From: Terriglobia bacterium
GTDB lineage: Bacteria > Acidobacteriota > Terriglobia > 2-12-FULL-54-10
Length of the DNA stretch: 64,000 bases
Assembly: GCA_963666975.2 (NCBI GenBank)
Contig: CAXVYR010000004.1
Location: 128,001-192,000 of the forward strand
Direction: 5' to 3'
The notes under the pieces were generated by a model, which saw only the letters and a program-made list of their open reading frames with translations, had not been told where the DNA came from and ran no database searches. Numbering within the stretch: the stretch's first letter is position 1; the number at the start of each line of letters is the position of its first letter. Below, piece after piece: positions 23,986-47,555 of the stretch. A program made the translations under genes and the position numbers.

Positions 23986-24123
23986 CAGCCCTGCAAGGGC
24001 GGCAGATCCTAGCCCAGGACGTAAGCGCTGGGACAACGGGGCCGGTATTACCCCGAGCCCTGGAGGGGCGCAAGACGCTTCGGCCCTCTTCTTTCGCCCC
24101 TTCTGGCACCCCTTCCGGGGCTG
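23986..24123. repeat. REP-like palindromic element
   Basis: GCCC..AGGGC and CCCAG..CTGGG hairpins; ends CAGCCC...GGGGCTG. Confidence 0.5.
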
Positions 24124-29908: not shown

Positions 29909-30961
29909 TCATGTGGCGGCCTGGGCCATGCTGCGGAGCCGTTGCCAGGTGAGTCCCTCGCGGGCGGCCAGCGGAAGGCCGGGAACGAGCACCATCATGT
30001 AGGTGAGCACCCAGAGCAAGATGGCCACGCTGGAAGCAACCTCCAAAGGAATTCCAAACAATTCCGTCAGCGCCACGACGATGGCCAACTGCGTTCCGCC
30101 CCCGATGCCGGGAAGCAGCAGCAGAGAACCAAAAACGGCAATCGCCAGCAGCAGCAAAACGGATCCCAGGTCCAGCCGGGTCATTGGCCATCCGAAGGCG
30201 CGCGTAACGCTCCAGTATGTCAGAACCACCGGGACCCACACCAGCAACGAGTAGCCCGCCGCGGCCAGGAAACTGGAAACACTTTCGATGCTCGCCAGGC
30301 CGCCCGAAAAACTCCCCAGCATCTTTCCGAGACGGTCCCGATACCGTTCCGGCAGCATCCACGCAAAGCGCAGCAAAAACCCGATGGTGGCTTTCGAGTT
30401 GGAGCGCAACAGCACGAGCAGCACCGCCACCAGGACAGACACCCCTCCAAGGAAGATTCCGCCCGTCCTCAAACGAGCCGTCGCCTGTGAGCCGTTCGCG
30501 AGGAAATCCGAGTCAGGGGAAAGCAGCAGCAGACCTACTCCCAGCAAAGCACCTACCGTGAGAGCGTCAAAGACCCGTTCCAGGGTCCAGGCAGCCAGTT
30601 GGGAAGAAAGATCAAGATTTTCTTTGCGCGCGATTAAGTAGGGCCGCACGAATTCTCCCGGACGCCCCATCAGCGCTACCGCTGAAAATCCAATCAACGT
30701 AGAAGCAAAGATATTATCCAGCCCCCCTTTCTTCATCGGCAGCAGAAAGACGCGCCATCGGAGGCTGCGAAAAAGATAGCTGGCAAAGATCATAAGGGCG
30801 GCAAGCAAAACGTAGGAAACCCGCACCTGAGCCAGGCTCTGCCAAAAGCGGGCAGCCTGAAACTGCTGCCATTCCGGGTTGGTAGCCAGTCTGTAGGCGA
30901 TGTAGGCTCCCAGAACGAGCAGGAGAAACAGCGTGCTGAAAACTTTCACTCGATACGTCAT
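29909..30961 (-). CDS. Lysylphosphatidylglycerol-synthase TM-domain (UPF0104) membrane protein
   Basis: RSLRW, GRPGEFVRP, ERVFD, PGIGG; multiple TM helices. Confidence 0.85.
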   Translation of the reverse strand: MTYRVKVFSTLFLLLVLGAYIAYRLATNPEWQQFQAARFWQSLAQVRVSYVLLAALMIFASYLFRSLRWRVFLLPMKKGGLDNIFASTLIGFSAVALMGRPGEFVRPYLIARKENLDLSSQLAAWTLERVFDALTVGALLGVGLLLLSPDSDFLANGSQATARLRTGGIFLGGVSVLVAVLLVLLRSNSKATIGFLLRFAWMLPERYRDRLGKMLGSFSGGLASIESVSSFLAAAGYSLLVWVPVVLTYWSVTRAFGWPMTRLDLGSVLLLLAIAVFGSLLLLPGIGGGTQLAIVVALTELFGIPLEVASSVAILLWVLTYMMVLVPGLPLAAREGLTWQRLRSMAQAAT

Positions 30962-31378
30962 AAAACGGAACGGAAACGGCAGCTAACTGAGCCTTTTGCC
31001 GGTCATTTGCTTCAGCCCAGGACAAAACCCCTCAGGCGTTTTCATCAACAATCCCGGCATCACTAATCCCGGCATCACTGATGCAAACACATCAGGGAGC
31101 AAACACCCCGGGATAGAATTCCCCTCTTAATGTTTTGTTCCGTTTGAACCAGAAACAGATGGCGATGATTTGCGAAATCCCCGGTTTAAGTCGGAAGCGT
31201 CTTGAATTTAGGATGAGATTATACAATGGCTGCAAGCAGCTATCCAGTGGGTTTCTTCGGTGGGTTTCGCCGGACATCCTGCATTCGCCCTTCACAAAAG
31301 GTAAATCGTGCCGGTTTTTGGAGTGGATTATAAAAACGCTTGCAGGGTTCGCTTTCCGCAAGGGCAGACAAAGCAGCC

Positions 31379-31930
31379 TCATTCCGCTTGGTTTTGCTGA
31401 GCCTGTTTGACTCGGATTGCCTTTGCGCGGGCTTCCCAATCTGCCGCCTCGTCCTCGCGTCCCATCTCGCGAAGCAACGCGGCGTAGTTCTCGATGCTGT
31501 GGCTACGCTGGGATGTTCCGCCCCGAAGGCCTTCTCGGCGATCTCCAATGACCGCCGGTAGAGCGGCTCGGCTTCGGCATAATTTCCCTGGGCGTAGTAG
31601 AGCGAAGCCAGGTTGTCGAGGCTCGCGGCAACGTCGGGATGCTCCGCCCCCAAGGTCTTTTCCATGATCGCCAAGGAGCGCTGATAAAGTAGCTCCGCCT
31701 CGGCGTAATTGCCCTGGGCATCGTAAAGAAACGCCAAGTCGTTGAGGCTTGCGGCGACGCCGGGATGCTCCGGCCCCAGAGTCTGTTCCTGGATTGCAAG
31801 CAACCGCGGTAGAACGGCTCGGCCTCGCTGTATTCACCCTGGGCATAGTAGAGGTCCGCCAAGTTCTTGAGTGTTGCGGTCAGGCGCGGGTCTTGCGTGT
31901 CAAAGCTTTCCGCTTCCTGCAGGGCAGTCA
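31379..31930 (-). pseudogene. TPR protein, 3' part (split by the integrative element; two 1-nt frameshifts)
   Basis: LTALQEAESFDTQDPRL..NLA.LY..QG.Y.EAE repeats with GxEHPxVA linkers spread over three frames. Confidence 0.85.
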
Positions 31931-32133
31931 ACCAAGTACAACTTATATGTTGTTCATAATATTAGACATACTTGATATTAACCCAACATGATCCCCTCAT
32001 TGTATCCCTCTTTCCGAACTGGAATCCATTGGACCGTCAGGGACATTCGTGGACAGGTTAGCCGAGAGATTCACCCTGAGTCCGGAAGCCCGAGGCAGTC
32101 GAGTGGGGTAGGCAACCTGCGCGTGGTGCGAAT
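31927..32133. repeat. Element end (attR arm region), copy 1 of an inverted repeat
   Basis: Near-identical reverse complement at 40692-40897 (both translate MIPSLYPSFRTGIHWTVRDIRGQVSR); AT-rich with ATCCC boxes. Confidence 0.9.
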
Positions 32134-32184
32134 GGAAGATCACGGATTGTGCTGCGCCGAGGTTGCGCCGCTCTTGTGTCCGCT

Positions 32185-32367
32185 CGACACGCTCATCGAG
32201 ATCATCTCAATCGCGCAGCAGGCGAGGCCGAACGTCATCGGCCAGATCGAGGACTTGCGCGCCCAGTTGATCGCCTGATTAAGCTTCGCGAAGATGATCC
32301 CTTCACCCTGTGTGCCGGTTTCCGCAGCAGGAATCAGCGAACTTTGTCCCGTCGTCGGGTATGCCAT
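32185..32367 (-). pseudogene. nuoB: 5' fragment of NADH-quinone oxidoreductase subunit B
   Basis: [24 protein letters not shown] is the NuoB signature; similarity stops abruptly after MISMSVS. Confidence 0.88.
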
Positions 32368-32446
32368 CCTGAATCTATTTTTCCACCGGCCTGAGTGCTT
32401 TGCAAACGGCGAACAGCTGGCCACTCTTCGAATGATTCGTGAAGAG

Positions 32447-34036
32447 CTAACCTTTGATTACGTTCTCTCCCTGACCTTCGCGAACAACCCTCGAAGCGTG
32501 GCTTGCGAGGAAACCGTCACGGGATGCACGGGTGAGCACTGAATTCCTGCGCCCCTTTTCCATCCGGTAGATTGAACAAAGAGTTTCTGCACGCTCAATA
32601 TCAGATCCAGCGGAAGAATAATGCCTTGCGATATGATCAATGTCCGCACGCGATCCAAAACGCGCAAGTACACGCTGAGCGGCGGATCGGAGGTATGCGG
32701 GTGAGTGTTCGGATCGATATTTCCGTCGAGCGTAGGCCAATGTTTGATCGGACGGCACTCGCTCACCGGCACTCCAGAACCTCAGTACCACGTAATGCTG
32801 GTATTCATAAACCGCATCTGGAGTTTTGAGAAATTGCAATATTCGGAATTCAGTCTTCGCCAACCACTGAACTTTCCCCATGTATGCTAGGATGGATTTT
32901 GTTTCCTCCGGGTGCTCCTCGAAAAGAGAAGTTGCATGACGCAAGGCAACGCGGTCTTTTGCCTTTCCTAGCCTAGCCAGCAAATAATGGAACAATGTCT
33001 TGTCAAATATCTTCGTGGACTTGATGAAGTGTAGGCGATAGGCTTGTCGAAGAAGTTTAGTGGGAGGTGAAATGTGGTTCTCTGCTAGCAGTTCCTCCGC
33101 TTGTGTGGACGAAAGATAATCGGAGTCTACTCCTACGAGTTCAGCGATTGTATCCTTATACTTTTTAACAAGGGGCTTCAACGTTGGCATAATCCCGTCG
33201 ACTTTTGCGCGGGCAGACTTTACTGACAGAATCTCTGTTTTAGCTGTTTGAAGACTTAGACCGCGATTGCGGAGCAGTTGACTGATGTCCACGAGTGCAC
33301 GCTTTGCTTCCGAAATGCTTCCGCAAAATATCCTGATATCGTCCACATATCTGAGGTGCTTGTAACCTGCCTCGTTAAGAGATTGGTCAACTCGGTCGAG
33401 ATAAAATTTAGCAAGAATATCTGAAGCGCTGATTCCTTGGGGAATCCCGCGACCGGGCACCATCGCCCATCTGTTTAGACAATGGCTCAAGAGTTCTATC
33501 AACGGATTTGAAAGGCCGGCATCTCGGAGATCAGAAATCAGGAGATCAAGGGCAATATGATCATAAAAGCCTGCTAGGTCCGTGCTAATCATGAAATCAA
33601 TTTCCGTTTCCAGTGCCGCGAGGCTTTGGTCGCGAAAATCCTTCCAACAAGCATACGGAAGTTTCAGCCAGTTGACTTGAGTACTGCCCGTAAATTGATA
33701 AGCACAATCGATCGGCGTTTTGGACCACGACATGGATGTGCACACATTTCTATAGGCCTTACCGACGATTGCAGTGAATACAACCTGATCCTGCAAACTC
33801 AGGATTGCCCCCGGTCGAATTCCTCCTTTACCCTTGGGAACGTCACAGATAGTTGCTGTTGAAGGGCTGTAATCGTTACCTGATATCCTTTTCAATAACT
33901 CATCTACCCAAGCATCTTCGCAGGATTGAATTATGGCAAGCTCAACAGGACTGGTTACAAAAACTCTGTCGTTCTTATGGTCTTGGACTACTCTCCTCAA
34001 GGCAAGTGACAAGTCTCGTTTTGACAGCAGCGCCAT
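32447..34036 (-). CDS. Reverse transcriptase, UG/Abi class-1-like, with alpha-helical repeat C-terminus (putative defence RT)
   Basis: [55 protein letters not shown]; ~250 aa helical tail; visibly lower GC than the host. Confidence 0.9.
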
Positions 34037-34046
34037 AGTGCCATGA

Positions 34047-34076
34047 TTATAGCGAAATTTAGATGGCCTAGTCGAT
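34047..34076 (-). promoter_or_regulatory. Putative sigma70 promoter of the RT
   Basis: On the - strand TCGACT-N18-TATAAT, 10 nt before the ATG; no SD, so a near-leaderless transcript. Confidence 0.5.
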
Positions 34077-34311
34077 GATGTGGAGAGCATCTGTGATCCA
34101 GCTTAGGACCGGCTTCCGCGCGGCTTTCATCGTGCAAGAAAGCCAAGTGCAGGTCCCGCGTCGGCGATGCCTCCTCGGGATGACAGCCAAGAAGCGGGCG
34201 GCGATAGTCACGCCGTAGTCGGACAGGATTACTTGCCACAACGGCGCGAGATACTTGAGCCGGGAGCCGAGGAACTGAAGTGCCAATCCCGCCTCGGCGC
34301 CGTCGGGCGAA

Positions 34312-34581
34312 AGGGGGCAGCAATTTGAGGGCGGTCAGATTGCGGCCCCAAGACTCCAACCGGACCCGCCAGACCGTGATGAGAAACAGCCCGCCGACAA
34401 TGACTGCGGCGGCGGGCGCGGCGTAGTACCAGCGAACGATCCAGCCGTAGAAGTTGGAGGTGTGATAGAGCACCAGATCCAGCACCGGATCGTCTCCGGG
34501 CATGGGGAAAGGCCGGTAGAGGAAACTCCAAGCGGAGCAGCCAAGCCCGCCAAAGAACAGGATCGGATAGCGCCATTTCAT
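34312..34581 (-). pseudogene. 5' fragment of a membrane-anchored protein, probably a type IV coupling protein (copy 1)
   Basis: MKWRYPILFFGGLG..YRPFP..DDPVLDLVLYH..WYYAAP; paralog at 42190. The coupling-protein assignment is from recollection of the family. Confidence 0.55.
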
Positions 34582-34599
34582 CGGGCTGGCCTCCGGCGC

Positions 34600-34951
34600 G
34601 TCAGCGCCAGCTTGCGGGTCCCTGTTCGGAGCCTTCCCGCAGGGATAAATCAGACGAGAGCGACCCCCAAAAAAGGGGGGGTCGCTCTCGTCTTTCCCCG
34701 CCCCTCTCCTTCTGGCGCGGGATCGCCGGGTGGCGCGGGATCGCCGGGTAGTGGCGGGCAAACACAAGAGAGGCAAAGAAATGGAAAAAATGAGTGCTGC
34801 CACAAAAAAATGCCGATTCTTGCCCCAACCCCCCCCTTATATAAGTGGCAAAAAAGATCGGCACGGCCACCGTGCACGGCAGGCCCAAAAAACAGTCTAT
34901 CTCGGAAACGTCCACTGGAGTTCCATTGCTGCGGTTCATTAGACTGTCTCC
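34600..34951. repeat. Iteron-rich non-coding region (oriT/ori-like), copy 1
   Basis: Reverse-complement homolog at 41771-42190; GTGGCA/TGCCAC boxes around CTTATATAAG. Confidence 0.65.
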
Positions 34952-35535
34952 ACCACCTTCACGCGGCTCGAAACCCACGTCTCGAAGCCGTCAATTGTGG
35001 CTCCGACTGAGCCGCTTGCCTTGGGAAGGTTCTTCAAATAACTCAACCGCTCTGAGACTCCCTGCAACCCGCCGTACTTCGCTATGATGTCCGTGTCTAA
35101 GGACAAAACCGCTTCCTCGATGGAATGTATTTTCTCCTTCACGGCAGGGTCGTTCCGGCTCGGTCCATCTGCCCTTTGACTGCTCTGCTCGCCAGCTCGC
35201 TGGCTCCAGGTTTCCAGCGCCGCCTCGGCCCGGATTGTGGCTTTGTGGTCTGCGCCGATTGCGACGGCGCGGACCTCGATACCCTTCAACCGTAAAGCCC
35301 TCCAAAGCCACTCATGAGAATTGCCCCAGGAACGCAGTTCGGTGTCGGTATATTTGCCCGGATCGACGTAGGCGAAGGTGGCGGTTTTGGCGTTAGCCGC
35401 GATGGGCAGTTTCAGGGCAAAGTAACGGGTTTGATTCCCCACGGCTCCCTGATAGATGCGGTGGGGAATCCGTTGGCGGTCGATGCCAAGCAAATCGAAG
35501 AAAGCGACCTTTTCCTGCTCGGTGGGAAGCCAGGC
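34939..35535 (-). pseudogene. 3' part of an element backbone protein
   Basis: WLPTEQEKV..RIYQG..RYFALKLPI..FAYVDPG..ELRSWG; upstream sequence in this frame looks non-homologous. Confidence 0.55.
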
Positions 35536-36079
35536 GTCTTCCACGGTTTTCTCCCAACTCTTTCCTTTCGTTGCTATTACACGGTTTTGGGGCGTCTGCT
35601 TTCGCTCGCAACGCCTACGCCTAGCCCGCTTGATGGGCGAGTTTTCTGACGGTCTCTTGACGGTAGTTGCTGCCATCGCCATGCTCTACTGGCCGCGCAG
35701 CTTGTTGTCGAGCGCGATCCAGTCGTTGCGATACCGGCGCTTGATGGCCTCCACCTGCTCCCACAGCTCGCACCCCGTTCCTCCTTCTATCAACTCCGTC
35801 TCGGTTGAAATCCCGAGTTGGACGAGCAGACCCTGAAGTGCCGCATCTAGCTGGCAGGCCGCTCTGTCTTCACCGGGAGCCACTTCCCAGCCCAGTCCTG
35901 GAACTGCTCCTGATGCTCGACCAAGTTCTTGCCGGCAATGAAGATCAGCTTGCACCGTTCACCTTGGCGACACCACATCACCCTCTTCGATCAGGTGGAG
36001 GTACCTATATGGCCTATTGACAACGGCGGGCTTTGCTCACCTATAGGCGTCCTGATGCGCGGGCTGCTGGAATGGAAGA

Positions 36080-36740
36080 TTAACAGCCCCTTCGCCGGCG
36101 CTTCGCCTTCAAACAAGACGGACGGGGCGGCGCAGACTTAACGCCTCCTGCGTCTTCGCGCTTTCGTTCGTAGCGTTCCCTCCGCACTGAGGAGGGGACA
36201 TCGTCTCTTGGATCGGGCAGTGCATCGACATAGTTCTGGGCGATGGCACTATCTCCTTCGGACCGTCGAAATTGGTCATAGACTCGCACCATTTCATGCG
36301 CAAATTTATCGCTGAGGGGCTCTTTGGATGATCTGTATTTGCTTCCGAATTGGCCGACCCATGTGTGGCGGTTCCCAACTCGAAGTAGACGTTTCAGGAG
36401 TGGAAATTTTGTGCCTCCTTTGTTGTCAATTAGCAGGGGAGCGTGCTCGTATCGAAAGGGCATCTACCTTGGTGACCAGATGGCTGCAGAACGGTCTCGG
36501 TAGGGTAACTACCTTCCTGACGGGCGGGCTAAGGAATACAAGGCGGGTGCCAAGTTTTCCGCCTTGCGCGAATGCCAGCCGTATCCCTTTCAGGTCACAA
36601 GCCGTCTTGGGGTGGAGCAGATTGCGGGCATGGCATCCCGTGATGCCGAAGCTGCCGAATTCCCAAAAGGGATCGTCCCGCATGTCCGAACGCCTCCTTG
36701 GTCTGCGAAGATGCACAATGATGACTTTTTCACCGGGCAT
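36080..36740 (-). pseudogene. Nmad3-associated protein, frameshifted
   Basis: VIIVHLRRP..MRDDPFWEFGSFGITGCH, continuing after a frameshift near 36490 as MPFRYEHAPLLIDN. Confidence 0.55.
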
Positions 36741-37220
36741 CAAGTTGTTCCTCTGAACCAACTCAACCTTTTGCCGTAAAAACCAGCTGTAGAATTTTCT
36801 GGCATTCAGAAATGCGGGCGGTCTGGCGCTGCGCTGAATGTAGCCATCTTTCACCGATAGGCCACCCCACTTTTCGAGCAGGCCGGGAGTCACGCGGTAG
36901 GCTCGGTCGCGCCATTCGCCAATTGGGATGCACTTGGTCAAGCGTCCGGATATAGACACCTTCGCGCGGACAACAATGTCAGCAGCAGCAATCTTACGCA
37001 CGCGCGTATGGGCGTTGCTCTTGTACTCAGTAGGAAGAACCGACGTGGCAGGCAGCACCTTATCAACCACGTACAGTCCAACCAACCCGTAGATCAGTTT
37101 CTCTTTCGCTCGAACCGACTTAAGGCCAGCATAGAAAACCAGAAGGTCATCTTCAGATAGATGCTTGATTCCAGCCCCGCGCTTGTCACCGTTGTCGCCA
37201 TAGGTCAGCCACTCAAAGTC
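36741..37220 (-). pseudogene. Nucleotide-modification-associated domain 3 (Nmad3)-like protein, 5'-truncated
   Basis: DFEWLTYGD..DDLLVFYAGL..NAH..SGRL..IPIG..YRV. Confidence 0.65.
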
Positions 37221-37323
37221 ATTGCCTCTCGCATTGCTGATCGTGGTAGACTGTGCCGGGGTTTTTGTCCTCTAAACCTGCCATCGACCCCACGCGCCTT
37301 CAGCTCGTGGAATAGGAAGGAAG

Positions 37324-38328
37324 ATGAAACGAATGATGAAATATCGTCTCTCCCCATTTCTGGTTCTCTTAATCCTGCTGTGCGTCGCGCCGCAAGCTTT
37401 CGGCGCCGATGAACCCGTGTCTTGCTCAGATCACTCCATCAACGCCCACGCTTTGCTCACAACGGGGGACGTTCAGGTGTTCGTTCAATGCGCCCACGAG
37501 TTCGTCCAGCAAGTGGGCTTTGAGGAGGCCCGTCGGGCCTTCCACGAAGACGAGCGTTGGAGAAGCGGTCCAACCTATGTCTTCGTCGACGAAGTGACGG
37601 CAATGAGATTGGATGCCCGAGCTTTCATCTTCCCGCCCGATCCGTCGCTGGAAGGGCAACCCTGGGGCCCGTTGATCGACGCCTACGGCGACTACTACGA
37701 GGAACTGTATCGTGTCATGAGCGTCGTCGATGAAGGCTGGCTCTACTACGCCTTCAGAAACCCGGCTACCGGCAGGGATGAGCCGAAGGCTTCCTACGTC
37801 AAAAAAATCGACTGGGACGGGGTGCCTTCTGCAATCGGCGCGGGCATCTACCGCCGCGACCTTCCCGGCACCTGCGAGGCGGAAGAGGTCAACGCCATGC
37901 AACTCGAGGCAGCGCCTTCCGCCCAGAGGCTGCAGGAGTTTGTCCGTTGCGCCGCCATGGAGCTGGAATCGAGTGGGTACTTCGCCGTCGGGGCGCTATC
38001 CAGCTATCCCCGCTGGCGAAACCAGTCGATCTACGTGTTCGGCCTGGATACCTACGGCAACCCGCTGTTCAGCGGCGATCTCTATAGCCAGCCGTGGTGG
38101 GGCGCCCTTGCCCCCGAGTTGAACGACCATGTGGGCGGACCCTTTGGGGGCCGGGATGTGGTGAGCGTCGGCAACGCCTTCGGCGAAGCCTTCCTGTACT
38201 ACTCGACGCGCAATCCCTTCACCGGGATGCTGCAACGCAAGGTGACTTTCGTCAAGAGGATACTGGTCTATGGCCTGCCGATTCTGGTCGGCGCCGGCTA
38301 TTATCTGGACGGCGAGGAGGGTCCGTAG
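37324..38328 (+). CDS. Secreted double-Cache domain protein, copy 1
   Basis: Signal peptide; two Cache-like units (YVFV..GWLYY..NPATG..EPKASYVK..IGAGIY). Confidence 0.8.
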   Translation: MKRMMKYRLSPFLVLLILLCVAPQAFGADEPVSCSDHSINAHALLTTGDVQVFVQCAHEFVQQVGFEEARRAFHEDERWRSGPTYVFVDEVTAMRLDARAFIFPPDPSLEGQPWGPLIDAYGDYYEELYRVMSVVDEGWLYYAFRNPATGRDEPKASYVKKIDWDGVPSAIGAGIYRRDLPGTCEAEEVNAMQLEAAPSAQRLQEFVRCAAMELESSGYFAVGALSSYPRWRNQSIYVFGLDTYGNPLFSGDLYSQPWWGALAPELNDHVGGPFGGRDVVSVGNAFGEAFLYYSTRNPFTGMLQRKVTFVKRILVYGLPILVGAGYYLDGEEGP

Positions 38329-38524
38329 GTCGGGCCAGGGTGCCTTTCTTGCCTTACCCCTTGACGGCGTGCGGGACTTGAGGAAGGTTATTTTGTGACA
38401 CTCAAAGCCCCGTCGCGGTCCTCGCCGGGCCTGAACTACGGGACGGCCCAGGGAGTGCTGGGGCTCCCGCCCTCAAAACTGCCATCGCTCCCACGCGCCT
38501 TCAACACGTGGAATAGCTAAGGAG

Positions 38525-39529
38525 ATGAAACTGATGAAACTTAGCCTCCCTCCATCTTTGGTTCTCTTAGTCCTACTGTGCGCCGCCCCGCAGGCTTTTG
38601 GTACCACCGAACCCGTGCCGTGCGCGAATAAATCCATCGTTGCCAGCGCCGTGCGCACACTGGGGGACATTCAGGCGTTCGTTCAATGCGCCTATGAGTA
38701 TGTCCAGGAAGTGGGTTTTGAGGAGGCCCGCCGGGCCTTCCACGAGGACGAGCGTTGGAGAAGCGGTCCCATCTATGTCGTCGTCAGCGAAGTGGCACAA
38801 ATGCCCGAGACGGCTCGTGCTTTCGTCTTTCCGCCCGCCCCTTCGCAGGAAGGGCAACCGTGGGGGCCGCTGGTCGATGTCTTCGGCAACGACTACGTCG
38901 TGGAACTACACCGTATCCTGAACAGCTTCAGCACGGGTTGGCTCTACTACTCCGTCACAAACCCAACGACGGGCAGAGATGAGCCGAAGGTTTCCTACCT
39001 CAAGAGCATCCACTGGGACGGGAATCCGGCCTCGATCAGCGCGGGGATTTACCGGCGCGACCTGCCCGGCACCTGCGCGGCGGAAGAGGTCAACGCCGGC
39101 CTGCTCGAATCCGATCCTTCCAACGCGCGGCTGCAGGAGTTCGTCCGTTGCGCCGCCATGGAGCTGGAATCGAATGGGTACTTCGCCATCCGGGCGCTCT
39201 CCAGCGATCCCCGCTGGCGAAACCAATCGATCTACGTGTTCGGCCTGGATACCAACGGCAACTCGCTGTTCAGCGGCAATTTCTACAGCCAGTCGTGGTG
39301 GGGCAGCCTTTCTCCGGAGTTGAACGACCATATAGACGGACCCTTTGGGGGCCGGGACGTGGTGAGCGTTGGCGATGCCTTCGGGGAAACCTTTCTGTAC
39401 TACTCCACGCGCAATCCCTCCACCGGGAGGATGCAGGACAAGGTGGCTTTCGTCAAGAGAGTCGTGATCTCCGGCCTGCCGATCCTGGTCGGCTCCGGCT
39501 ATTACCTGGACGGCGAGGAGGGTCCGTAG
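38525..39529 (+). CDS. Secreted double-Cache domain protein, copy 2
   Basis: Paralog of copy 1; AAGGAG SD. Confidence 0.8.
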   Translation: MKLMKLSLPPSLVLLVLLCAAPQAFGTTEPVPCANKSIVASAVRTLGDIQAFVQCAYEYVQEVGFEEARRAFHEDERWRSGPIYVVVSEVAQMPETARAFVFPPAPSQEGQPWGPLVDVFGNDYVVELHRILNSFSTGWLYYSVTNPTTGRDEPKVSYLKSIHWDGNPASISAGIYRRDLPGTCAAEEVNAGLLESDPSNARLQEFVRCAAMELESNGYFAIRALSSDPRWRNQSIYVFGLDTNGNSLFSGNFYSQSWWGSLSPELNDHIDGPFGGRDVVSVGDAFGETFLYYSTRNPSTGRMQDKVAFVKRVVISGLPILVGSGYYLDGEEGP

Positions 39530-39632
39530 GCCGGGCCTGAACTACGCTACGACCAAAAGGTGGTGCAGGGGTTCCCGCCCTACAAAACCGCCATCGCTCC
39601 CACGCGCCTTCAACTCGTGGAATAGCAAGGAG

Positions 39633-40622
39633 ATGAAACTGGTGAAACTTAGCCTCCCCCCATCTCTGATTCTCTTAATCCTACTATGCGCAGCGCCGCA
39701 GACTTTTGGCGCCGATGAACCCGTGCCTTGCTCGGATCACTCCATCGTTGCCAGCGCCGTGCGCACAACAGGGGACGTTCAGGCGTTCGTTCAATGCGCT
39801 TATGAGTTCGTCCAGGAAGTGGGCTTTGAGGAAGCCCGCAGGGCTTTTAACGAGGACGAGCGTTGGAAAAGCGGCCCCATCTATGTCTTCGTCTCCGAAG
39901 TGACGCCGATGAGCGATCAGGCCCGACTCTTCGTCTTCCCGCCCGCTCGGCCGAGGGAAGGATCAAGCTTAGGACTGTTGATCGACGCCTACGGCAACGA
40001 CTACTACAAGGAACAGCATCGTATCGTGAGCGGCTTCGGCGCGGGCTGGCTCTACTATTCCTTCTTAAACCCCGCGACCGGCCGGGATGAGCCAAAGGCT
40101 ACTTTCATCAAGGGCATCGACTGGGACGGGAATGCGGCCGCAATCGGCGCGGGCATCTACCGCCGCGACCTTCCCGGCACCTGCGAGGCGGAAGAGGTCA
40201 ACGCCATGCAACTCGAGGCAGCTCCTTCCGTCCAGAGGCTGCAGGAGTTTGTCCGTTGCGCCGCCATGGAGCTGGAATCGAATGGGTACTTCGCCATCCG
40301 GGCGTTATCCAGCGATCCCCGCTGGCGCAGCCAATCGATCTACGTGTTCGGCCTGGATACCTACGGCAACGCGCTGTTCAGCGGCAATCTCTACAGCCAG
40401 CCGTGGTGGGGCGCCCTTGCCCCCGAGTTGAACGACCATGTGGACGGACCCTTTGGGGGCCGGGATGTGGTGAGCGTCGGCAACGCCTTCGGTGAAACCT
40501 TCCTGCACTACTCGACGCGCAATCCCTCCACCGGAATGCTGCAGCGCAAGGTGGCTTTCGTCAAGAGGATAATAGTCTATGGCCTGCCGATTCTAGTCGC
40601 CGCCGGCTATTATCTGGATTGA
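39633..40622 (+). CDS. Secreted double-Cache domain protein, copy 3
   Basis: Paralog that is a mosaic of copies 1 and 2. Confidence 0.8.
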   Translation: MKLVKLSLPPSLILLILLCAAPQTFGADEPVPCSDHSIVASAVRTTGDVQAFVQCAYEFVQEVGFEEARRAFNEDERWKSGPIYVFVSEVTPMSDQARLFVFPPARPREGSSLGLLIDAYGNDYYKEQHRIVSGFGAGWLYYSFLNPATGRDEPKATFIKGIDWDGNAAAIGAGIYRRDLPGTCEAEEVNAMQLEAAPSVQRLQEFVRCAAMELESNGYFAIRALSSDPRWRSQSIYVFGLDTYGNALFSGNLYSQPWWGALAPELNDHVDGPFGGRDVVSVGNAFGETFLHYSTRNPSTGMLQRKVAFVKRIIVYGLPILVAAGYYLD

Positions 40623-40691
40623 AGCGAGCCGGTTCGCAAGCGGCCGACTATCGGGCCGCTGAAGCACAGCGGCACAGCCAGCGAATCTCCG

Positions 40692-40911
40692 ATTCGCAGC
40701 ACACGCAGATTGCCACCCTACTCAACCGCCTCGGACTCCCGGACTCCGGGTGAATCGCTCGGCTAACCTGTCCGCGAATGTCCCTGACGGTCCAATGGAT
40801 TCCCGTTCGGAAAGAGGGATACAATGAGGGGATCATGTTGGGTTCATATCAAGTATATCGATTATTATGAACAACTTATAAGTTTAACTTGGTTGACGCT
40901 ACCTCAGGCAT
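40692..40911. repeat. Second element end (attR-like), inverted relative to 31927-32133
   Basis: Ends TGGTTG-ACGCTACCT-CAGGCAT: the same core arm but a different 9-bp spacer. Confidence 0.85.
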
Positions 40912-40986
40912 CTTTTCCAAACCCCGTCAAATTTGGTAAGCTGGTGGGACTGCGGTGATGCAGCAGGAATGGTGAGGAGGAGTGCA

Positions 40987-41748
40987 ATGACGGCAGGGTT
41001 CAGGGGTATCGTCCGGCGGCTGTCTCCGCTGATTCTGTTGCTGGCCTGCGGTCTGCCGGCCCAGGCCCAGGACCGGGCCGCTCTCGAGCAGCGCCTCAGC
41101 GAGCGCGTGGAGCAGCTCTATCAATTGTTCGTTTCCGGCGACTGGAGCAAGGTGGACGCATACATCACGGATGATTCCCGGAACATCTGGCTGGCCCAGG
41201 CCAAAAACACCATCGAAGCGTTTGAGATTGACGCGGTGACGGTCGCGCCCGACGGCTAAAAGGCCGACGTCACCGTGATGATCTCCTACCGCATCCCGCA
41301 AGCTCTCGGCGCGCCCTTCACCCAGCCGCAGAAGACCGAGTGGCTCCATCAGGGAGGAGAGTGGTTTGTCCAGTTGAAGCCTCCGCCTTCCCCGATGGAC
41401 CTGTTCACAAAGGGTGCCACCGCCGTAAAGCCTGCCGCACCGAAGCCCGCCTTCCGGTTCGACCAAAACCCCGTGAGCATTGCCCGTCCGGCAGCGGGCT
41501 TCAAAGCCGTTGTAAAAGTCCCCTTTGAAAATGTGACGACCGAGGTGGTGACCCTCCAGGACGTCATCACCACCTGCCCTTGCCTGCAGGCCAAGGTGGA
41601 TCAAGCGGTGATCGACCCGGGCGGAAAAGGAGTCCTCACGATCACCTATCTTCCCTCCGAAGCGCCCTCTTTCCAGCAACCGCTCAGCGTCCGAGCCGTG
41701 CTCGCTCCGTCAAACTACGTTTTGGATCTGCCGGTGGTGATTAAGTAG
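40987..41748 (+). pseudogene. Secreted protein with C-terminal DUF1573/Ig-like domain and an in-frame TAA at 41257
   Basis: AGGAGG SD; signal peptide; PFEN..V.TTCPC..IDPGGKG.L.ITY; frame continuous across the TAA. Confidence 0.65.
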
Positions 41749-41770
41749 GTAGCGACAGGCCTTAGGTAGG

Positions 41771-42190
41771 GGAGACAGTCTAATGAACCGCAGCAATGGA
41801 ACTCCAGTGGACGTTTCCGAGATAGAGCGTTTTTTGGGCCTGCCACAAACGGTGGCCGTGCCGATCTTTTTTGCCACTTATATAAGGGGGGGTTGTGGCA
41901 AGAATCGGCATTTTTTTGTGGCAGCACTCATTTTGTCCATTTCTTTGCCTCGCAGTGGTTTTCCTGCTACTACCAGGCCATCCCGCGCCAGAAGGAGAGG
42001 CGCGGGGAAAGACGAGAGCGACCCCCCCTTTTTTGCCGCTCTATCGGCAAACAGGAAAAGGGGTTTGTGGCAGGGTTTGTGGCATACCCTGCCACCCCCT
42101 TTTGGGGGTCGCTCTCGTCTGATTTATCCCTGCGGGAAGGCTCCGAACCCTAACCCCAAAAGGGCGCTGAGGCGCCGGAGGCAAGCCCCA
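41771..42190. repeat. Iteron-rich non-coding region, copy 2
   Basis: Inverted homolog of 34600-34951 with an extra GGGTTTGTGGCA tandem. Confidence 0.65.
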
Positions 42191-42575
42191 TGAAAATACG
42201 CCATCCGATCCTGATAGTTGCTGGGCTTGGCTGCTCCGCTTGGGGTTTCCTCTACCGGCCTTTCCCCCTGCCCGGCCACGATCCAATGCTCGACCTGGTG
42301 CTCTATCACACCCCCAACTTCTACACCTGGATCGTCTGGTGGTACTACATCGCGCCAGCCGCCGCCGTCGTCGTCAGCGGACTGTTTCTCATCACGGTCT
42401 GGCGGGTCTGGTTTGAGTCTTGGGGCGTCGGCCTTCCGAACATCCAGATGCTTCCACCGTGGCCCGTGAATCCCGCAGAAGACGACGGGCCGTCGATCGT
42501 TGTTGGGGAGGTTCATCACCCGGTCAAAGCCGTCGAATCTCGTAACCCTTCCTGGCTCATTATCCCGGAGCGCGG
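42190..42575 (+). pseudogene. 5' fragment of the probable coupling protein (copy 2)
   Basis: MKIRHPILIV..LPPWP..SIVVGEVHHPV..PSWLIIPERG, truncated where a P-loop region would be expected. Confidence 0.6.
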
Positions 42576-42633
42576 CCGCGCGCGCGCGTGGCCCCTGGCG
42601 GGCCGTGTCGCGTGCGATAATCCCTATTGATAA

Positions 42634-43354
42634 GGGGCTGTCCTAGCTAAGGGTGATTCTGTCTCGATTTGATCCATGTCTTCAATTGGTTAAGCAGTGT
42701 CCGGTGGTTACCGCCATTGAAGCGCCATTCGCACTCCTTCAGGAAGAGGTGAAAACTCTGTTTGGGCACCCCGTTGAAGCGCCGAAGATGCCGCTTTGCC
42801 TGGTTCCAGAAGTTCTCGATCCCATTGATGTGGTTCCGTTCGTCGACGAACCGTTCCGAGTGGTTGATCCGAACATGGTGGAAGTCCGACACATCCAGAG
42901 CATCGTAGCTCGAAAAGCCATCCGTGTAGACGATGCTGTCGGGCTGGATCAGGCGCTCCATGATCGGCATCAACGTGTCCGTACGGGCATTGGGGATCAT
43001 CACCGTGTAGACCCTTCCTCCACGCTTCAAAAGCCCGAAAACCGGGACTTTCCCGCCAGCACCACGACCGCGTTTGCCCTTGCGGCGACCACCGAAGTAA
43101 CTCTCGTCCACTTCGATTTCGCCGCAAACCGAAGAGGCTTTCTGGGTCTCCTCGGCAATCACCGTGCGAATCCGTGTATAGAACGAAGCGGCCGTGTTCC
43201 GATGAACCCCGACAAGCTCAGCCGCCGCCCGTGCCGTCGTCCCGGCAACGAAGTGCTCCACCAACCGATCCCGCTTCGCCTTGCTCAGCCGACTACGCCG
43301 TTCGTACATATCGCCATCCTATCCCTAAGCAATCTGCTTAGCTAGGACAGCCCC
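42634..43354 (-). mobile_element. IS1595-family (IS1016-like) element, 721 bp; transposase 42647-43309
   Basis: Perfect 18-bp IR GGGGCTGTCCTAGCTAAG; 8-bp TSD ATTGATAA; EVDESYFGG, VYTDG, HINGIENFW. Confidence 0.95.
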
Positions 43355-43489
43355 ATTGATAATTACATGTATGGCGAAGGATTCTGAGGGCAGGGAGAAC
43401 ACGCCCCCATGACCAATGGACCAGCGATCGTCATCGGCGGCGAGTGTCCGACTTGGCCAGACGGCCCTCGAACCCTGAAGGCGCTGCCC

Positions 43490-43566
43490 GCCAGCCACTC
43501 CGCCTCGCAGCGGGTCCACCCGTGCGTCATCAGGACAGCCGCTCGGTCCCGAAGATGGGCGATCAT
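43490..43566 (-). pseudogene. 5' stub of a backbone gene translationally coupled to the integrase
   Basis: TGATG overlap with the int stop; MIAHLRDRAAVLMTHGWTRCEAEWLA, then degenerates. Confidence 0.5.
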
Positions 43567-44789
43567 CAACCGGCGCTCTCGCGCTCGCTGTCGAGGTAGG
43601 CTGCCCAGTCATGCATCAAAATCCGCCGACGTTCAAAGAGGTCCGAGCGGGCGTAGGCCGCCTCGACCTTGTTCCGGACCACATGCGCCAGGGCCGCCTC
43701 GATCACCTCTCGTGGATGATTCGTCTCCTCGGCCGCCCAGTCGCGGAAACTGGAGCGGAAACCGTGCGGCACGGCGGAGATCTTTAAGTCCTTTAGCAAT
43801 CCCGACAGCATCATGTCGCTGAGTTGCTTTCCTTGCTGCACGCTCGGGAACAGCAGCGGGCCGCCGCCTTCGCCCAGCGTCCGGGCCGCGTCGAGAATCT
43901 CTATGGCACGGCGGCACAGCGGCGCCCGCTGCTCGCGATTCGCCTTCATCCGCGTGGCCGGAATCGTCCACACACCCTCGTCCCGATCGATCTCCGTCCA
44001 CACCGCCCCACGCACCTCACCGGACCGCGCCGCCGTCAGCACCAGGAACTCGAACGCCAGCTTCACGACCGGCCTCGCATTCGATGCCCGGATCGTCTCG
44101 ATGGCCGCCGGCACCTCCCGGTGGGGCAATGTCCGCATGTGCTGCACAACACCGTGTTGGGCACCGAGCACCGGCACCACCCGGTCACAGGGGTTGTCGA
44201 TACGAAATTCCATCGCCACGACCCATTCCAACACCGCGCGCATGCGCTGCTGGACGCAACGGGCCATGACCGCCTTCCGGTGCCAGATGGGCGTGAGGAT
44301 CTCCAGCACATCGGCACTGCTCACTTCTGAGACCGGCATCTTGCCGATCCGCGGAAAAGCGTAGCGTTCCAGGCTGCTCAGCCAGTCCCTCGGGTGAGTC
44401 GAACTACGCCAGCCGGCCTGCTTCTGTTGCAGCACGCGCGCAGCAGCTTCGGCGAAGCTGGGCACGCCCTGGGCGCGGCGTTTCTCTGCCAGCGGGTCAC
44501 CGCCCTCGCGGGCTAGCTTGCGATTGGTCAATGCCTTTTCGCGAGCCTCGGCGAGCGAGACCAGTGCGACACTGCCGAGTCCGAGCTCGCGGCGTCGGCC
44601 TCGGATGATGAGACGTTGAATCCAGCTCCGGGTTCCGCTAGGCTGGACGAAGAGGTACAGCCCGTTGCCGTCAGCGTGTCTTCCCACTCCGGCTGAGCGC
44701 ACGAAGGAGGCCGATAGGACCTTGTCGGGATGGCGGCCTTTGGGCTTGGTTTTTGGTGGTAGGCTGACTGTCTTGATTACAGCAATCAT
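43566..44789 (-). CDS. Tyrosine integrase, P4/IntA-like, with arm-binding domain
   Basis: ADGNGLYL..RELGLG..SLAEAR (DUF4102); catalytic LTAARSGE, RMK, HGFRSSF, LAH and AY. Confidence 0.95.
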   Translation of the reverse strand: MIAVIKTVSLPPKTKPKGRHPDKVLSASFVRSAGVGRHADGNGLYLFVQPSGTRSWIQRLIIRGRRRELGLGSVALVSLAEAREKALTNRKLAREGGDPLAEKRRAQGVPSFAEAAARVLQQKQAGWRSSTHPRDWLSSLERYAFPRIGKMPVSEVSSADVLEILTPIWHRKAVMARCVQQRMRAVLEWVVAMEFRIDNPCDRVVPVLGAQHGVVQHMRTLPHREVPAAIETIRASNARPVVKLAFEFLVLTAARSGEVRGAVWTEIDRDEGVWTIPATRMKANREQRAPLCRRAIEILDAARTLGEGGGPLLFPSVQQGKQLSDMMLSGLLKDLKISAVPHGFRSSFRDWAAEETNHPREVIEAALAHVVRNKVEAAYARSDLFERRRILMHDWAAYLDSERESAG

Positions 44790-44795
44790 CCCACC

Positions 44796-44824
44796 ATTAT
44801 AAATGGGATGACCGTGGATTTCAA
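44796..44824 (-). promoter_or_regulatory. sigma70 promoter of the integrase (leaderless)
   Basis: TTGAAA-N17-TATAAT-N6-ATG; the -10 is bracketed by the CATCCCA/TGGGATG inverted repeat. Confidence 0.7.
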
Positions 44825-44936
44825 GGGAAGTAGTGGGCAATAAAATGTGCGTCAGTATTCATATATCTAATTGAATATATAGATAGTTATAAACTCTCCT
44901 GGACGATTATGGATGTTGTTGGATTCTGATAGATGG

Positions 44937-45137
44937 CTGTAGGGCAGTCAGCCATTGCTCCTCGGCCTCGGCGTAGAGACCTTGCTCATAGGCCTCGGTT
45001 CCGGTGTCGTTATATCTCTCCCACATCGCGCCGCGGCATGCTTGCGTAGAGGCCAGCAGCATACACAGAACTCCTGCCTGCCACAGATGGGTTCGGGCGT
45101 TCATATCCTCTGCCTCCTTTGCCTCCTTTAGCTTCAT
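44937..45137 (-). pseudogene. TPR protein, 5' part with signal peptide
   Basis: MNARTHLWQAGVLCMLLA..WERYN..G..AYEQG.YAEAEEQWLTALQ ends at the att core. Confidence 0.85.
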
Positions 45138-45214
45138 CTGGTGGCTTCATCCATATTTAGGGATGCAAAAGCTTGGCGGGACTTAGGCGGGCAAACAGGT
45201 GTGCAGCGGCGGGA

Positions 45215-45571
45215 CTAAACCCACTCCAAAGCGCCCTTTTTGTAGACCCAGATGTAGCCGGCGATCAAGATGGCCAGGAAAATCCCCATCTCAAGCAGGC
45301 CAAACAGCCCCAGTACTTTGAACTGCACAGCCCAAGGAAACAGGAAGATGGTTTCCACTTGGAAAATGACAAAGAGGATGGCGACGATGTAGAAGCGAAC
45401 GGTGTATCGCCCTCGAGAGTCCGATGCCGGGTCGATGCCGCACTCATAGGGCATGAGCTTCGCTTTGAAGGGAGCGTCCGGCCGCACCAGCTTGGCTGCC
45501 AGCAGGGTGACTACTGGAAAGAGAGTGGCAATAATCAGAAAAATGACAACGGGGATGTATTCAGAAGGCAC
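45215..45571 (-). CDS. nuoA: NADH-quinone oxidoreductase subunit A
   Basis: KLMPYECG, RFYIVAILFVIF.VE..FLFPWA, KKGALEW; GTG start. Confidence 0.93.
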   Translation of the reverse strand: MPSEYIPVVIFLIIATLFPVVTLLAAKLVRPDAPFKAKLMPYECGIDPASDSRGRYTVRFYIVAILFVIFQVETIFLFPWAVQFKVLGLFGLLEMGIFLAILIAGYIWVYKKGALEWV

Positions 45572-45722
45572 AGTCTCGCTCCCTGACGTTCGGTAATCGT
45601 GAGCGCCATTGTAACACAACTTTTGCCGGCCCAACTCCCGGCAGTTTTTCAACACCTCTCTGACACTATTTTCAACTCAGCAGAACCACCATGTTTTTCC
45701 GCGCAAGCCCTTCTGTCAGTTC

Positions 45723-47555
45723 TCAGTGCCGGTGCGCCATCGGCGCCGACAAGACCACGAGGTTCAACACCGTGTAAGCGATGGCGAAAAGCATAATCGG
45801 CAAAGCCGTGCGAAAAGCCAGCCGGGACTGGGCGGTATTCCGCCGCGCCACAGTAACTCCCACCCGAAAAGCCAGGAAGAGGCCGCCGGCCAATGCCAGC
45901 CATTGCAGTGTAAACAGCGTGTTCGGCGCGATGGAGGATGCAGCCGCGGCCGTTGAGGCCGATGCCAAAGACTCCCAACCTGTGTATTGCGCCACCGCGT
46001 TCTTCACGCCGGTCCACATAGCGCCTCCCTCTCCGAACAGGTGGTGAAAATTATGCGCCGCGTGCAAACCCAGGCCCAGCGGAAGGAACGCGTAAGCGTA
46101 GGTGCGAAACGTCCGAAAGATGTCGCCGCGAAACTCCTCGCGGGGCGCTCCCAGATAGGAAACCAACCCCACCAGCAGAACGGGAACGATCAGTCCCAGC
46201 ATCACAAAGATCAGCGTGTAGAGAACCGGGCCCGGCGCCATGCCCAGCCATCTGCCGGCAGCCGCCTCCCATCCCGTCCATGCATTCAGCATCACCAAAG
46301 TCTGCAACAAAGCGACGCCCAGCACGGCCGCCACCGTCGAGGCCTCATCCAATGACTTGCGATGCGAATGGAACTCACCCAGGTCGGCGCCGAACGACTG
46401 AGTCTGAAGAGTGATATTGTCGTTGGGGCACGCCCGAACGCAATCCAGGCACATGTTGCACTCCGCGTTGCGGTCCATCGTGGGAGCGAACTCAAACCAG
46501 GCGCAAGATTGGTAGCAATCCTTGTGGGGGCATTCCTGCTGGCAGAGGTTCTTGTCCTTTACGCCGATCCGCACCGGAGCCGTCATGGCATACAGACCGA
46601 AGATGCCGCCCAGCGGACAGACATAGCGGCAGAAGGTCCGTTTCTGATAGATCACCGCCAGCGTGACCGCTCCCAGGGTCAGCCCCAACCCCAGTCATGC
46701 TGTTCCGAATGGCCAGCGGTCCAGAGCCCACAGGGTTGTGGCCCAAGTGAGCGCCAGGAACAGTCCCACGCGCCACCACATATTCTTCAGTATCTTGGGA
46801 GCTTTCAACTGGAAGCTGAAGATTTTTTGTGCCAGGTCGCCCACCCAGCCAAACGGACAGGCCATGCACCAGATGCGCCCCAGCAAGATAAAGGTAAAAA
46901 TGATCGCCGGCCACCACAGAATCCATGTCAGCAGGATCGCCGGGTTGCTGGTGTTCTGTTCCCCGAACAGACCGGCAAGCACAACAAACGTAAAAATTAA
47001 AGCCGTCGGGGCAACCAACAAGGCCGGGAAATGCTTCCACCGCACGAGCTTGCCGATTACAGGCCACTTTAACAGATCGCTTCCCTGCGCGTGTGGTTCC
47101 GCCGCTCCTGGACGGAGCGAGCGCCATGCTGAATACATCAGCGCGGCGGCTATCGCAAAGGTCAAAAGCAGCAGCAATCGCACGACTCCCGGAGTGGGAA
47201 TGATACCGCCATGTTCGTGGTCCATTTCTCCGGCGTCGGCAGTCATCCCGGCCGAGGTCTCCTCGCTCATATTCATATCGTGCATAGTCAGCCTCAGAGC
47301 AAATCGCGGGGCCAAAGAGTCCCGGGAAGGCGAGCGGAGATCGTGCTGAGGGGCGGCCTGTCCGTTTTGGACAACCATCATGCTGGCGGCAACAGCCGCC
47401 GCAGTATTTTTCTGGGCCGTGTCTTTCTGAGTCGCGTCATGCGCAGCCAGAAAATCGGTCCCGACAAGACAGATCACCAGAAGAACCCCAGCCAGCAACG
47501 CCCTGGCCGGCCGTAACTGAAACATTAACTGAGCACTTCTATTGAGCCGATACAT
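45723..47555 (-). pseudogene. Membrane polyferredoxin (NapH/FixG-like 4Fe-4S binding) with an in-frame TGA at 46695-46697
   Basis: GRIWCMACPFG, FCRYVCPLG, CNMCLDCVRACP; the two ORFs share a frame; His/Met-rich N-terminal region. Confidence 0.8.

Follow-up and report, generated by a model that had tools for sequence, protein, structure and literature searches.

Tyrosine integrases of the P4/CP4-57 (IntA) type typically integrate at the 3' end of a tRNA or tmRNA gene and restore that end, a behavior that is typical of these enzymes and not defining. The skin element in sigK and the nifD element interrupt genes and act as switches, and P4-like satellites carry variable hotspots of defence genes. 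Tn916 and CTnDOT are mobile elements with tyrosine recombinases of relaxed specificity, and IS1397 and ISKpn1 are insertion sequences (IS) that target repetitive extragenic palindromes (REP). Excerpts from the literature (PMC5499854, PMC6597384, PMC10747680) count SPbeta in spsM, phiSa3int in hlb and yin in yabG among the gene-interrupting switch elements. Here we present the analysis of a 13-kb integrase island of the P4/CP4-57 type, which lies in a 64-kb window (the whole stretch of Terriglobia DNA that was analyzed, 64,000 nucleotides in length) and splits a gene for a small secreted protein with tetratricopeptide repeats (TPR). The host is a sponge-associated bacterium, and the insertion is an ordinary and dead one, not a genetic switch. 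In all probability the island knocked out a redundant TPR paralog, by now a pseudogene that bears two more lesions, and is itself a mosaic in decay, fixed in the population from which the samples came.

The island is bracketed by two copies of a short direct repeat (the core), CTGCAGGGCAGTCA at 31917-31930 on the left and CTGTAGGGCAGTCA at 44937-44950 on the right, which agree at 13 of 14 positions. Written with Y at position 4, the repeat had exactly two matches in the genome of 4,234,367 bases, one at each junction; three places elsewhere in the genome matched with one mismatch, and the reversed pattern, used as a control, gave none. On the minus strand, the 5' TPR piece ends in ..AEAEEQWLTALQ (..EEQWLTALQ), continues with PSIRIQQHP and meets a stop codon within the island, a tail of 10 codons in total. 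The 3' TPR piece opens with (W)LTALQEAESF at 31934/31931, also on the minus strand. The window contains no tRNA or tmRNA gene, and the GC content is 0.577 both within and outside the island. The first-pass annotation of this DNA had described a tyrosine-integrase element inside a TPR coding sequence, with a direct repeat at both junctions, without a tRNA target or a replacement 3' end, and with a truncated TPR protein in the integrated state. All of this is borne out: the element by the junction repeats, the integrase domains and a collinear ortholog (see below), the repeat by its presence at both junctions and at no other place in the genome as an exact match, the missing tRNA target by the tRNA and tmRNA count in the window, and the missing 3' end and the truncation by the 10-codon tail and the stop that follows it within the island. 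Precise excision would rejoin the TPR halves in register. That the insertion is 'in frame' is unremarkable, as precise loss of any element together with one repeat copy restores the original sequence.

An intact ortholog of the split gene, P0001 (235 aa, uninterrupted, encoded on a single metagenome contig), was obtained from a protein database as the one match among 30 candidates, and was aligned against the two window pieces held separate. Its residues 1-56 align with 45104-44937 (frame -1, 82% identity), residues 51 to ~93 with 31934 to ~31806 (frame -3), residues 94-196 with 31806 to ~31498 (frame -2) and residues 197-235 with 31498-31382 (frame -1). As P0001 is collinear over both pieces, the ancestral TPR gene was continuous across the insertion point, and the six residues covered twice are the duplicated core. 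The same alignment places the true start of the TPR gene at the ATG at 45104 and requires three frames for the 3' piece. Accordingly, the 5' fragment, with the signal peptide and the first helices, covers 44937..45104 on the minus strand (P0001 residues 1-56), its open reading frame (ORF) in the integrated state continuing to the stop at 44907. The 3' fragment covers 31379..31931 on the minus strand (TPR_12, 1.5e-42) and ends with the stop codon at 31379-31381. Two deletions of 1 nt each, one within 31804-31808 and one within 31496-31498, distribute this fragment over three overlapping frames.

At least six TPR paralogs are present in the genome. Each has a signal peptide and TPR_12 repeats, and two stretches are conserved among them, ..AEAEKQ-LAALQEAEKFGPEDPRL.. 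and the C-terminal tail ..ENYA-LLR..GR..EA..ARA-AIRAK. When paralogs from the same genome were used as queries, all five showed the same break, with frames -3, -2 and -1 on the 3' piece. A second small secreted TPR_12 paralog (C4 1011728-1012171; C2, C3 and C4 are contigs of the same genome) also appears frameshifted. Regarding the 76-aa 5' ORF, a comparison with 41 genomes (own included) gave matches in seven, all of them paralogs, with a best non-self identity of 52%. The uninterrupted gene that the first-pass annotation had suggested looking for in related genomes was thus not found as an ortholog in the 40 relatives, and was found as P0001 in the protein database.

Contigs of four public sequencing runs from four studies were compared with positions 30500-46500 of the window. 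In three of the runs (three studies), single contigs extend from 30500 to 32019, 32009 and 31997, with no gaps and with 0, 0 and 1 other letters, respectively; they span both frameshift sites and the left junction and reach at least 66 bases into the island. The right junction is crossed by contigs of the same three runs, which extend from 44780 or 44836 to 46500. The fourth run (X1, labelled sponge metagenome) yielded two contigs of 151 nt, at 31368-31518 and 31799-31949, which are gap-free at the frameshift sites. The depth of the unique parts of the island equals that of the flanks (~7-11). Joints expected from an empty site or a circle, i.e., a skip or a go-back between ~31930 and ~44937, did not occur among the best 15 of 24 joints, all of them from assembled contigs, in which rare variants are dropped. 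The first-pass annotation had held that genuine frameshifts in the 3' half, together with a lack of empty-site and circle reads, would mark a dead insertion in a pseudogene, and such frameshifts are indeed seen against the ortholog, against all five paralogs and in the contigs of all four runs.

The integrase (43566..44840, minus strand, 424 aa) consists of Arm-DNA-bind_3, Phage_int_M and Phage_integrase domains. Both N-terminal domains are present, the arm-binding one (PF13356, Arm-DNA-bind_3 / DUF4102, 9.7e-18) and the central SAM-like one (PF22022, 5.5e-22), and the N-terminal part matches the PDB entries 3jtz ('CP4-like integrase') and 2khv. The catalytic domain (PF00589) is covered at profile positions 2-168 of 172. 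In an alignment with nine relatives, the motifs ARSGE (271), HGFRSSFR (359), LAH (384) and AAYAR (394) are retained, and with them the expected catalytic positions (Arg, His-x-x-Arg, His and Tyr); the roles of these residues are those generally known for tyrosine recombinases and are not taken from a structure. Four substitutions at otherwise invariant columns are unique to this integrase, including H304Q and V306A in the otherwise invariant HRVPL motif, and the corresponding numbers are 2-6 in eight of the nine relatives and 23 in the ninth. Decay of the integrase was considered and rejected, as the substitution count is no higher than in the relatives. A promoter-like sequence, TTGAAA-17-TATAAT at 44824->44796, agrees with the consensus at 11 of 12 positions, which is a consensus match and not evidence of function. 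The integrase had been described as apparently intact and as having its own promoter; the former holds, apparently, by motifs and substitution count, and the latter comes down to this consensus match. From such a promoter, transcription would begin at the conserved ATG at 44789, which is also the likely start of translation. The conserved N-terminal ..YN-GM.. of the annotated integrase ORFs coincides with the TATAAT box and the next ATG (44789-44840 and homologs). Integrases of this kind probably use that ATG as their start and a transcript with little or no leader. No excisionase of the Xis, AlpA or HTH_17 type was detected in 54 ORFs (18 plus 36 window ORFs) searched against Pfam, nor with PHROGs, searches that a small unrecognisable factor may escape. 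Phage or satellite families beyond the integrase and a reverse transcriptase (RT) were not found either, PHROGs included.

These data bear on the question whether the island could serve as an excision-controlled switch of the skin/sigK, nifD or SPbeta/spsM type (active lysogeny), in which excision would rebuild a working TPR gene. The layout of the locus agrees with a switch, in that the insertion lies in coding sequence, the core is duplicated, the halves join in register, and the integrase is apparently intact and accompanied by a promoter-like site; moreover, the ArdC-like and the CpsB-like gene that host two sister islands in the same genome are cut cleanly and stay open in both halves. 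A switch, however, is expected to interrupt a gene that is otherwise intact, and here two 1-nt deletions lie in the 3' half, both backed by the ortholog, the paralogs and the independent contigs. A rebuilt TPR gene would therefore stay out of frame past approximately residue 93 of 235: the earlier proposal that excision rebuilds the gene holds for the register of the halves and fails for the gene, which stays broken. The 54 ORFs scanned include no excisionase, the best 15 of the 24 joints include none of an empty site or a circle, and the target is one of at least six paralogs, another of which is also frameshifted. The closest relatives of the island, finally, lie in intergenic REP-like repeats and not in genes, so that gene interruption is not a conserved feature. 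Given this evidence, we regard a switch as extremely unlikely. The first-pass annotation had left a simple knockout and a skin/nifD-type switch side by side; the simple knockout stands, and the switch fails on the two frameshifts.

The argument depends on the frameshifts being real and on the island lying inside the gene. Both deletions are of a single base, and the assembly of the window has only four contigs, which suggests long reads; one might thus suspect a recent knockout of an otherwise intact gene, with assembly errors in place of frameshifts. As the contigs of all four runs (four studies) are gap-free at both sites, including the 151-nt contigs of the sponge metagenome, this is very unlikely. 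An assembly chimera or a mixture of strains, with the island not inside the gene in any one cell, might be suspected from the multi-copy nature of the island, the depth rising from ~10 over the unique parts to 300-2800 where the IS, the integrase and the Cache genes lie. It is hardly conceivable, because in three runs of three studies both junctions are crossed by single contigs that reach 66 bases or more into the island, and because the unique parts of the island have the depth of the flanks. Several points weigh against a dead insertion all the same. The sequencing platform of the four runs is unrecorded, and the runs may sample one clonal symbiont population, in which case the frameshifts are shown to be real there and not shown to be old. 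Contigs drop rare variants, so that an empty site or a circle of low frequency could be missed. The integrase is 94% identical to that of one relative and looks apparently intact; excision as such may thus be feasible, and might occur at a low level without regulatory meaning.

The knockout may be pictured as follows. A P4/CP4-57-type integrase island would have entered a small secreted TPR_12 paralog by site-specific recombination, presumably catalyzed by this integrase lineage, and would have left a core copy at each junction. The insertion would be a plain knockout, leaving a 5' piece with a 10-codon tail and no replacement 3' end from the element. The TPR gene is by now a pseudogene in its own right, with a 3' piece short of one base at two places, and the island would have decayed and been reshuffled since its arrival. 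We infer that it is fixed in the sampled population and no longer serves regulated excision. That the insertion came before the decay of the gene is an assumption of this picture, the reverse order being equally possible.

Both ends of the island carry conserved arms. The right-end arm (44841..44936, minus strand, 96 bases) contains TGGAC/TGGAT repeats and is conserved in sister copies, while the left-end arm (31931..32160, plus strand) is non-coding and consists of two conserved modules with TGGAC-type repeats. The left-end repeat family has six further copies in the genome. The idea that the left end acts as a non-coding RNA or guide was considered and rejected: 31800-32500 has no Rfam match at E <= 1, and the predicted folds are no better than those of shuffled sequences (z-scores 0.65, 1.56, -0.23 and 0.06). 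In addition, two copies that differ in their cores have the same core-adjacent block, which thus does not covary with the target. The sole Rfam family above threshold in the window is the Acido-Lenti-1 RNA at 23987-24032 (minus strand), with 40.7 bits versus a gathering cut-off of 37.

Next to the left end, the island encodes a full-length UG21-class (UG/Abi class 1) RT of 547 aa (32447..34090, minus strand; PADLOC RT_UG21 5.7e-142; RVT_1). The match to the RT_UG21 profile (472 bits) links residues 22-538 to profile positions 2-501 of 503, the runner-up being UG19 with 1.8e-62, and the YVDD motif is present. Thus the profile is matched over its full length, including the RT domain and the C-terminal helical-repeat region, as is expected of a UG21 member. 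According to an excerpt of a survey of these enzymes (PMC9226505), UG21 is a class 1 UG/Abi RT with HEAT-like C-terminal repeats, for which the defence prediction is 'inconclusive'. The gene is listed here as a candidate defence gene. Directly downstream of it lies a nuoB 5' fragment (32143..32424, minus strand; NF011394 2.8e-15, far below the cut-off), which spans approximately positions 12-56 of the NuoB profile and shows 84-87% DNA identity to two places on C3. It has the appearance of a remnant of an earlier neighborhood.

The remaining cargo is a patchwork. A backbone gene fragment, A, with the N-terminal membrane part, lies at 34309..34958 on the minus strand (residues 1-91 of a 159-aa C4b ORF), and another, B, at 41764..42630 on the plus strand (residues 1-144 of 159); fragment A is an inverted duplicate of 41764-42630, with 86% identity to 41764-42426. 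Next to it lies what is left of a second backbone gene, 273 aa long in the sister islands (34939..35682, minus strand); this truncated homolog is homologous over residues 140-257 only and matches no family in Pfam, PADLOC, PHROGs and further profile scans. Positions 35525-35958 hold a repeated stretch of ~430 bp, which recurs on C3 and C2 with 90% identity and has a summed contig depth of 450-850, and unassigned ORFs lie at 36080-37085, between this homolog and a trio of Cache genes. The latter (37324..40622, plus strand) encode three tandem paralogous secreted Cache-domain proteins of 334, 334 and 329 aa (sCache_2, dCache_2), which are 81-86% identical to one another and have no output domain. 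Over the Cache stretch the summed contig depth is 160-1700, versus ~10 for unique DNA, so close copies must be very abundant in those samples.

A second, inverted copy of the left end follows at 40674..40907 (minus strand), with a core-like 14-mer of its own at 40894-40907. This 14-mer agrees at 12 of 14 positions with that of an orphan right end on C3, which is 97% identical to the right end of the island, and their two flanks are compatible in reading frame. As the internal left end thus pairs with the orphan right end, the island has exchanged parts with a sister element. Next comes a chromosome-like segment (40933..41780, plus strand), 73% identical to C3 157306-158117, with genes for a secreted protein and a DUF1573 protein (40933-41748) and a REP-like unit at 41748-41780 (REP motif match at C4:169748-169760). 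An IS of the IS1595 family (42630..43354, minus strand; transposase 42647-43309, DDE_Tnp_IS1595 1.2e-33) lies between fragment B and the integrase; nine further copies of 721-725 bp with at least 99.2% identity, together with the transposase match, place it in that family. Judged from these pieces, namely the IS1595 copy, the duplicated and truncated backbone genes, the inverted left end, and the nuoB and chromosome-like segments, the island reads as a decayed mosaic. A single origin scheme was sought, by inversion or by nested insertion, and none fitted all orientations.

Two further integrases of this kind are encoded in the genome, with 74% and 77% amino-acid identity to the one described here. 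All three insertions whose two ends could be paired split protein-coding genes (TPR, ArdC-like and CpsB/CapC-type); in each, the right end follows the 5' half and the integrase points in the same direction as the split gene, and the three cores share no sequence. The ArdC-like anti-restriction gene is split by a 10.5-kb island (L009; C4 2398735-2409225) with a 9-bp repeat. Its halves match the MPTase-PolyVal profile at positions 2-87 and 85-125, respectively, and both are open. The cargo of that island is a type III restriction-modification (R-M) system, with a Res gene that is apparently in pieces. The CpsB/CapC-type gene is split by the third island (L011, L012; C4 ~21490 and C3 ~29032) with a 12-bp repeat, its halves matching the profile at 1-186 and 183-233. 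The ends of this island lie on two contigs, and it probably spans a contig break. An identical copy of its left end, with a different flank, occurs near the end of contig C2. Beside the left end, all three annotated members of the family carry a gene of defence type: the UG21 RT in the island of the window, the type III R-M system in C4b and an MmeI-family enzyme in L031, a complete relative from another genome.

A scan of one genome per species gave 20 related loci, hosted by Terriglobia, other Acidobacteriota, Longimicrobiales and metagenome-assembled genomes (MAGs) of Ca. Versatilivorator, with integrase identities of 67-94% across Acidobacteriota and Gemmatimonadota. No tRNA or tmRNA gene was found within 10 kb in 21 loci (16 longer related loci plus five from the own genome). 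A left end downstream of the integrase was present in five of the 16 longer loci, and these five were examined for repeats. The four closest copies (L019, L026, L030 and L031; 91-94% identity, one same-genus genome) adjoin REP-like palindromic arrays. Occurrences of one motif of these units numbered 64 in the same-genus genome G001 (= G041; control 10), 8 in a third same-genus genome (control 15) and 3 in the own genome of the island (control 6), from which the repeat family is nearly absent. Two of the Ca. Versatilivorator loci lie within the integrase gene of another family element, and a third locus adjoins an integrase fragment (L028, L032, L033); L028 has an 11-bp repeat inside a ..FELLVLTAAR.. 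coding stretch. Two loci on one Terriglobia MAG contig, L019 and L030, have integrases of 92% and 94% identity that face each other ~14 kb apart, with the right ends outward; no left end was detected for either, and L030 has a Leu where the first catalytic Arg is expected.

Among insertions of the closest subgroup, the core varies in its central 7 bases and is constant on the element side, with CTGT for the right end and TCA for the left, which would correspond to an overlap of 7 bases that is not fixed in sequence. Compared by eye and without gaps, the TPR site and the REP-type sites have a 7-mer in common and agree at ~10 of 19 positions, a post hoc and weak resemblance. In a narrow literature search of titles and abstracts, P4-type islands were described neither as targeting REP-like repeats nor as residing in sponge symbionts. 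Taken together, these observations tentatively suggest an undescribed clade of P4-type integrase 'defence islets' in sponge-associated Acidobacteriota and Gemmatimonadota, which would avoid tRNA genes and use a loose core with constant arms and a variable 7-base overlap. Its usual targets might be REP-like hairpin repeats, and in a genome without such repeats it might resort to look-alike sites in TPR, ArdC-like, CpsB-like and integrase genes, so that the TPR insertion would be an off-target event. We regard this combined picture as possible and rather doubtful as a whole.

A gene switch at this locus, if true, would have been a rare example of regulation by DNA excision outside spore-formers and cyanobacteria, and the evidence against it removes a false lead. 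What is documented instead is the case of a P4-type integrase island that knocks out coding sequences in place of targeting tRNA genes. The island family moves defence genes (UG21 RT, R-M) between phyla of sponge-associated bacteria and seems to favor REP-like repeats where the host has them. Relaxed, overlap-tolerant targeting, if confirmed, would widen the known abilities of P4-type integrases.

Compared with switch elements, the island is similar in geometry only: it lies within coding sequence, has a short flanking repeat, and its precise excision rejoins the halves. It differs from them in that its target has two further frameshifts, in that neither a directionality factor (54 ORFs, PHROGs) nor an excision product (among the best 15 of 24 joints) was found, and in that insertion at such sites is not conserved in relatives. 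Its likeness to the P4/CP4-57 (IntA) islands is closer, with DUF4102, central and catalytic domains, an integrase at one end that reads inward, and at each end a conserved arm with short repeated motifs. Unlike these islands, it has no tRNA or tmRNA gene at the junction and leaves its target without a restored 3' end, and the cores differ between the sister islands. A defence-type gene beside the left end in three of three annotated members recalls the defence islands on small integrative elements, although, unlike in P4-like satellites, no satellite or phage genes were detected in the island. In contrast to Tn916 and CTnDOT, the family has a P4-type integrase with an arm-binding architecture and no conjugation genes, but it resembles them in its many different targets, in the variable central 7 bases of the core and in the constant element-side arms. 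With IS1397 and ISKpn1 it shares the choice of site, the insertions in a sister species lying within REP-like repeat arrays.

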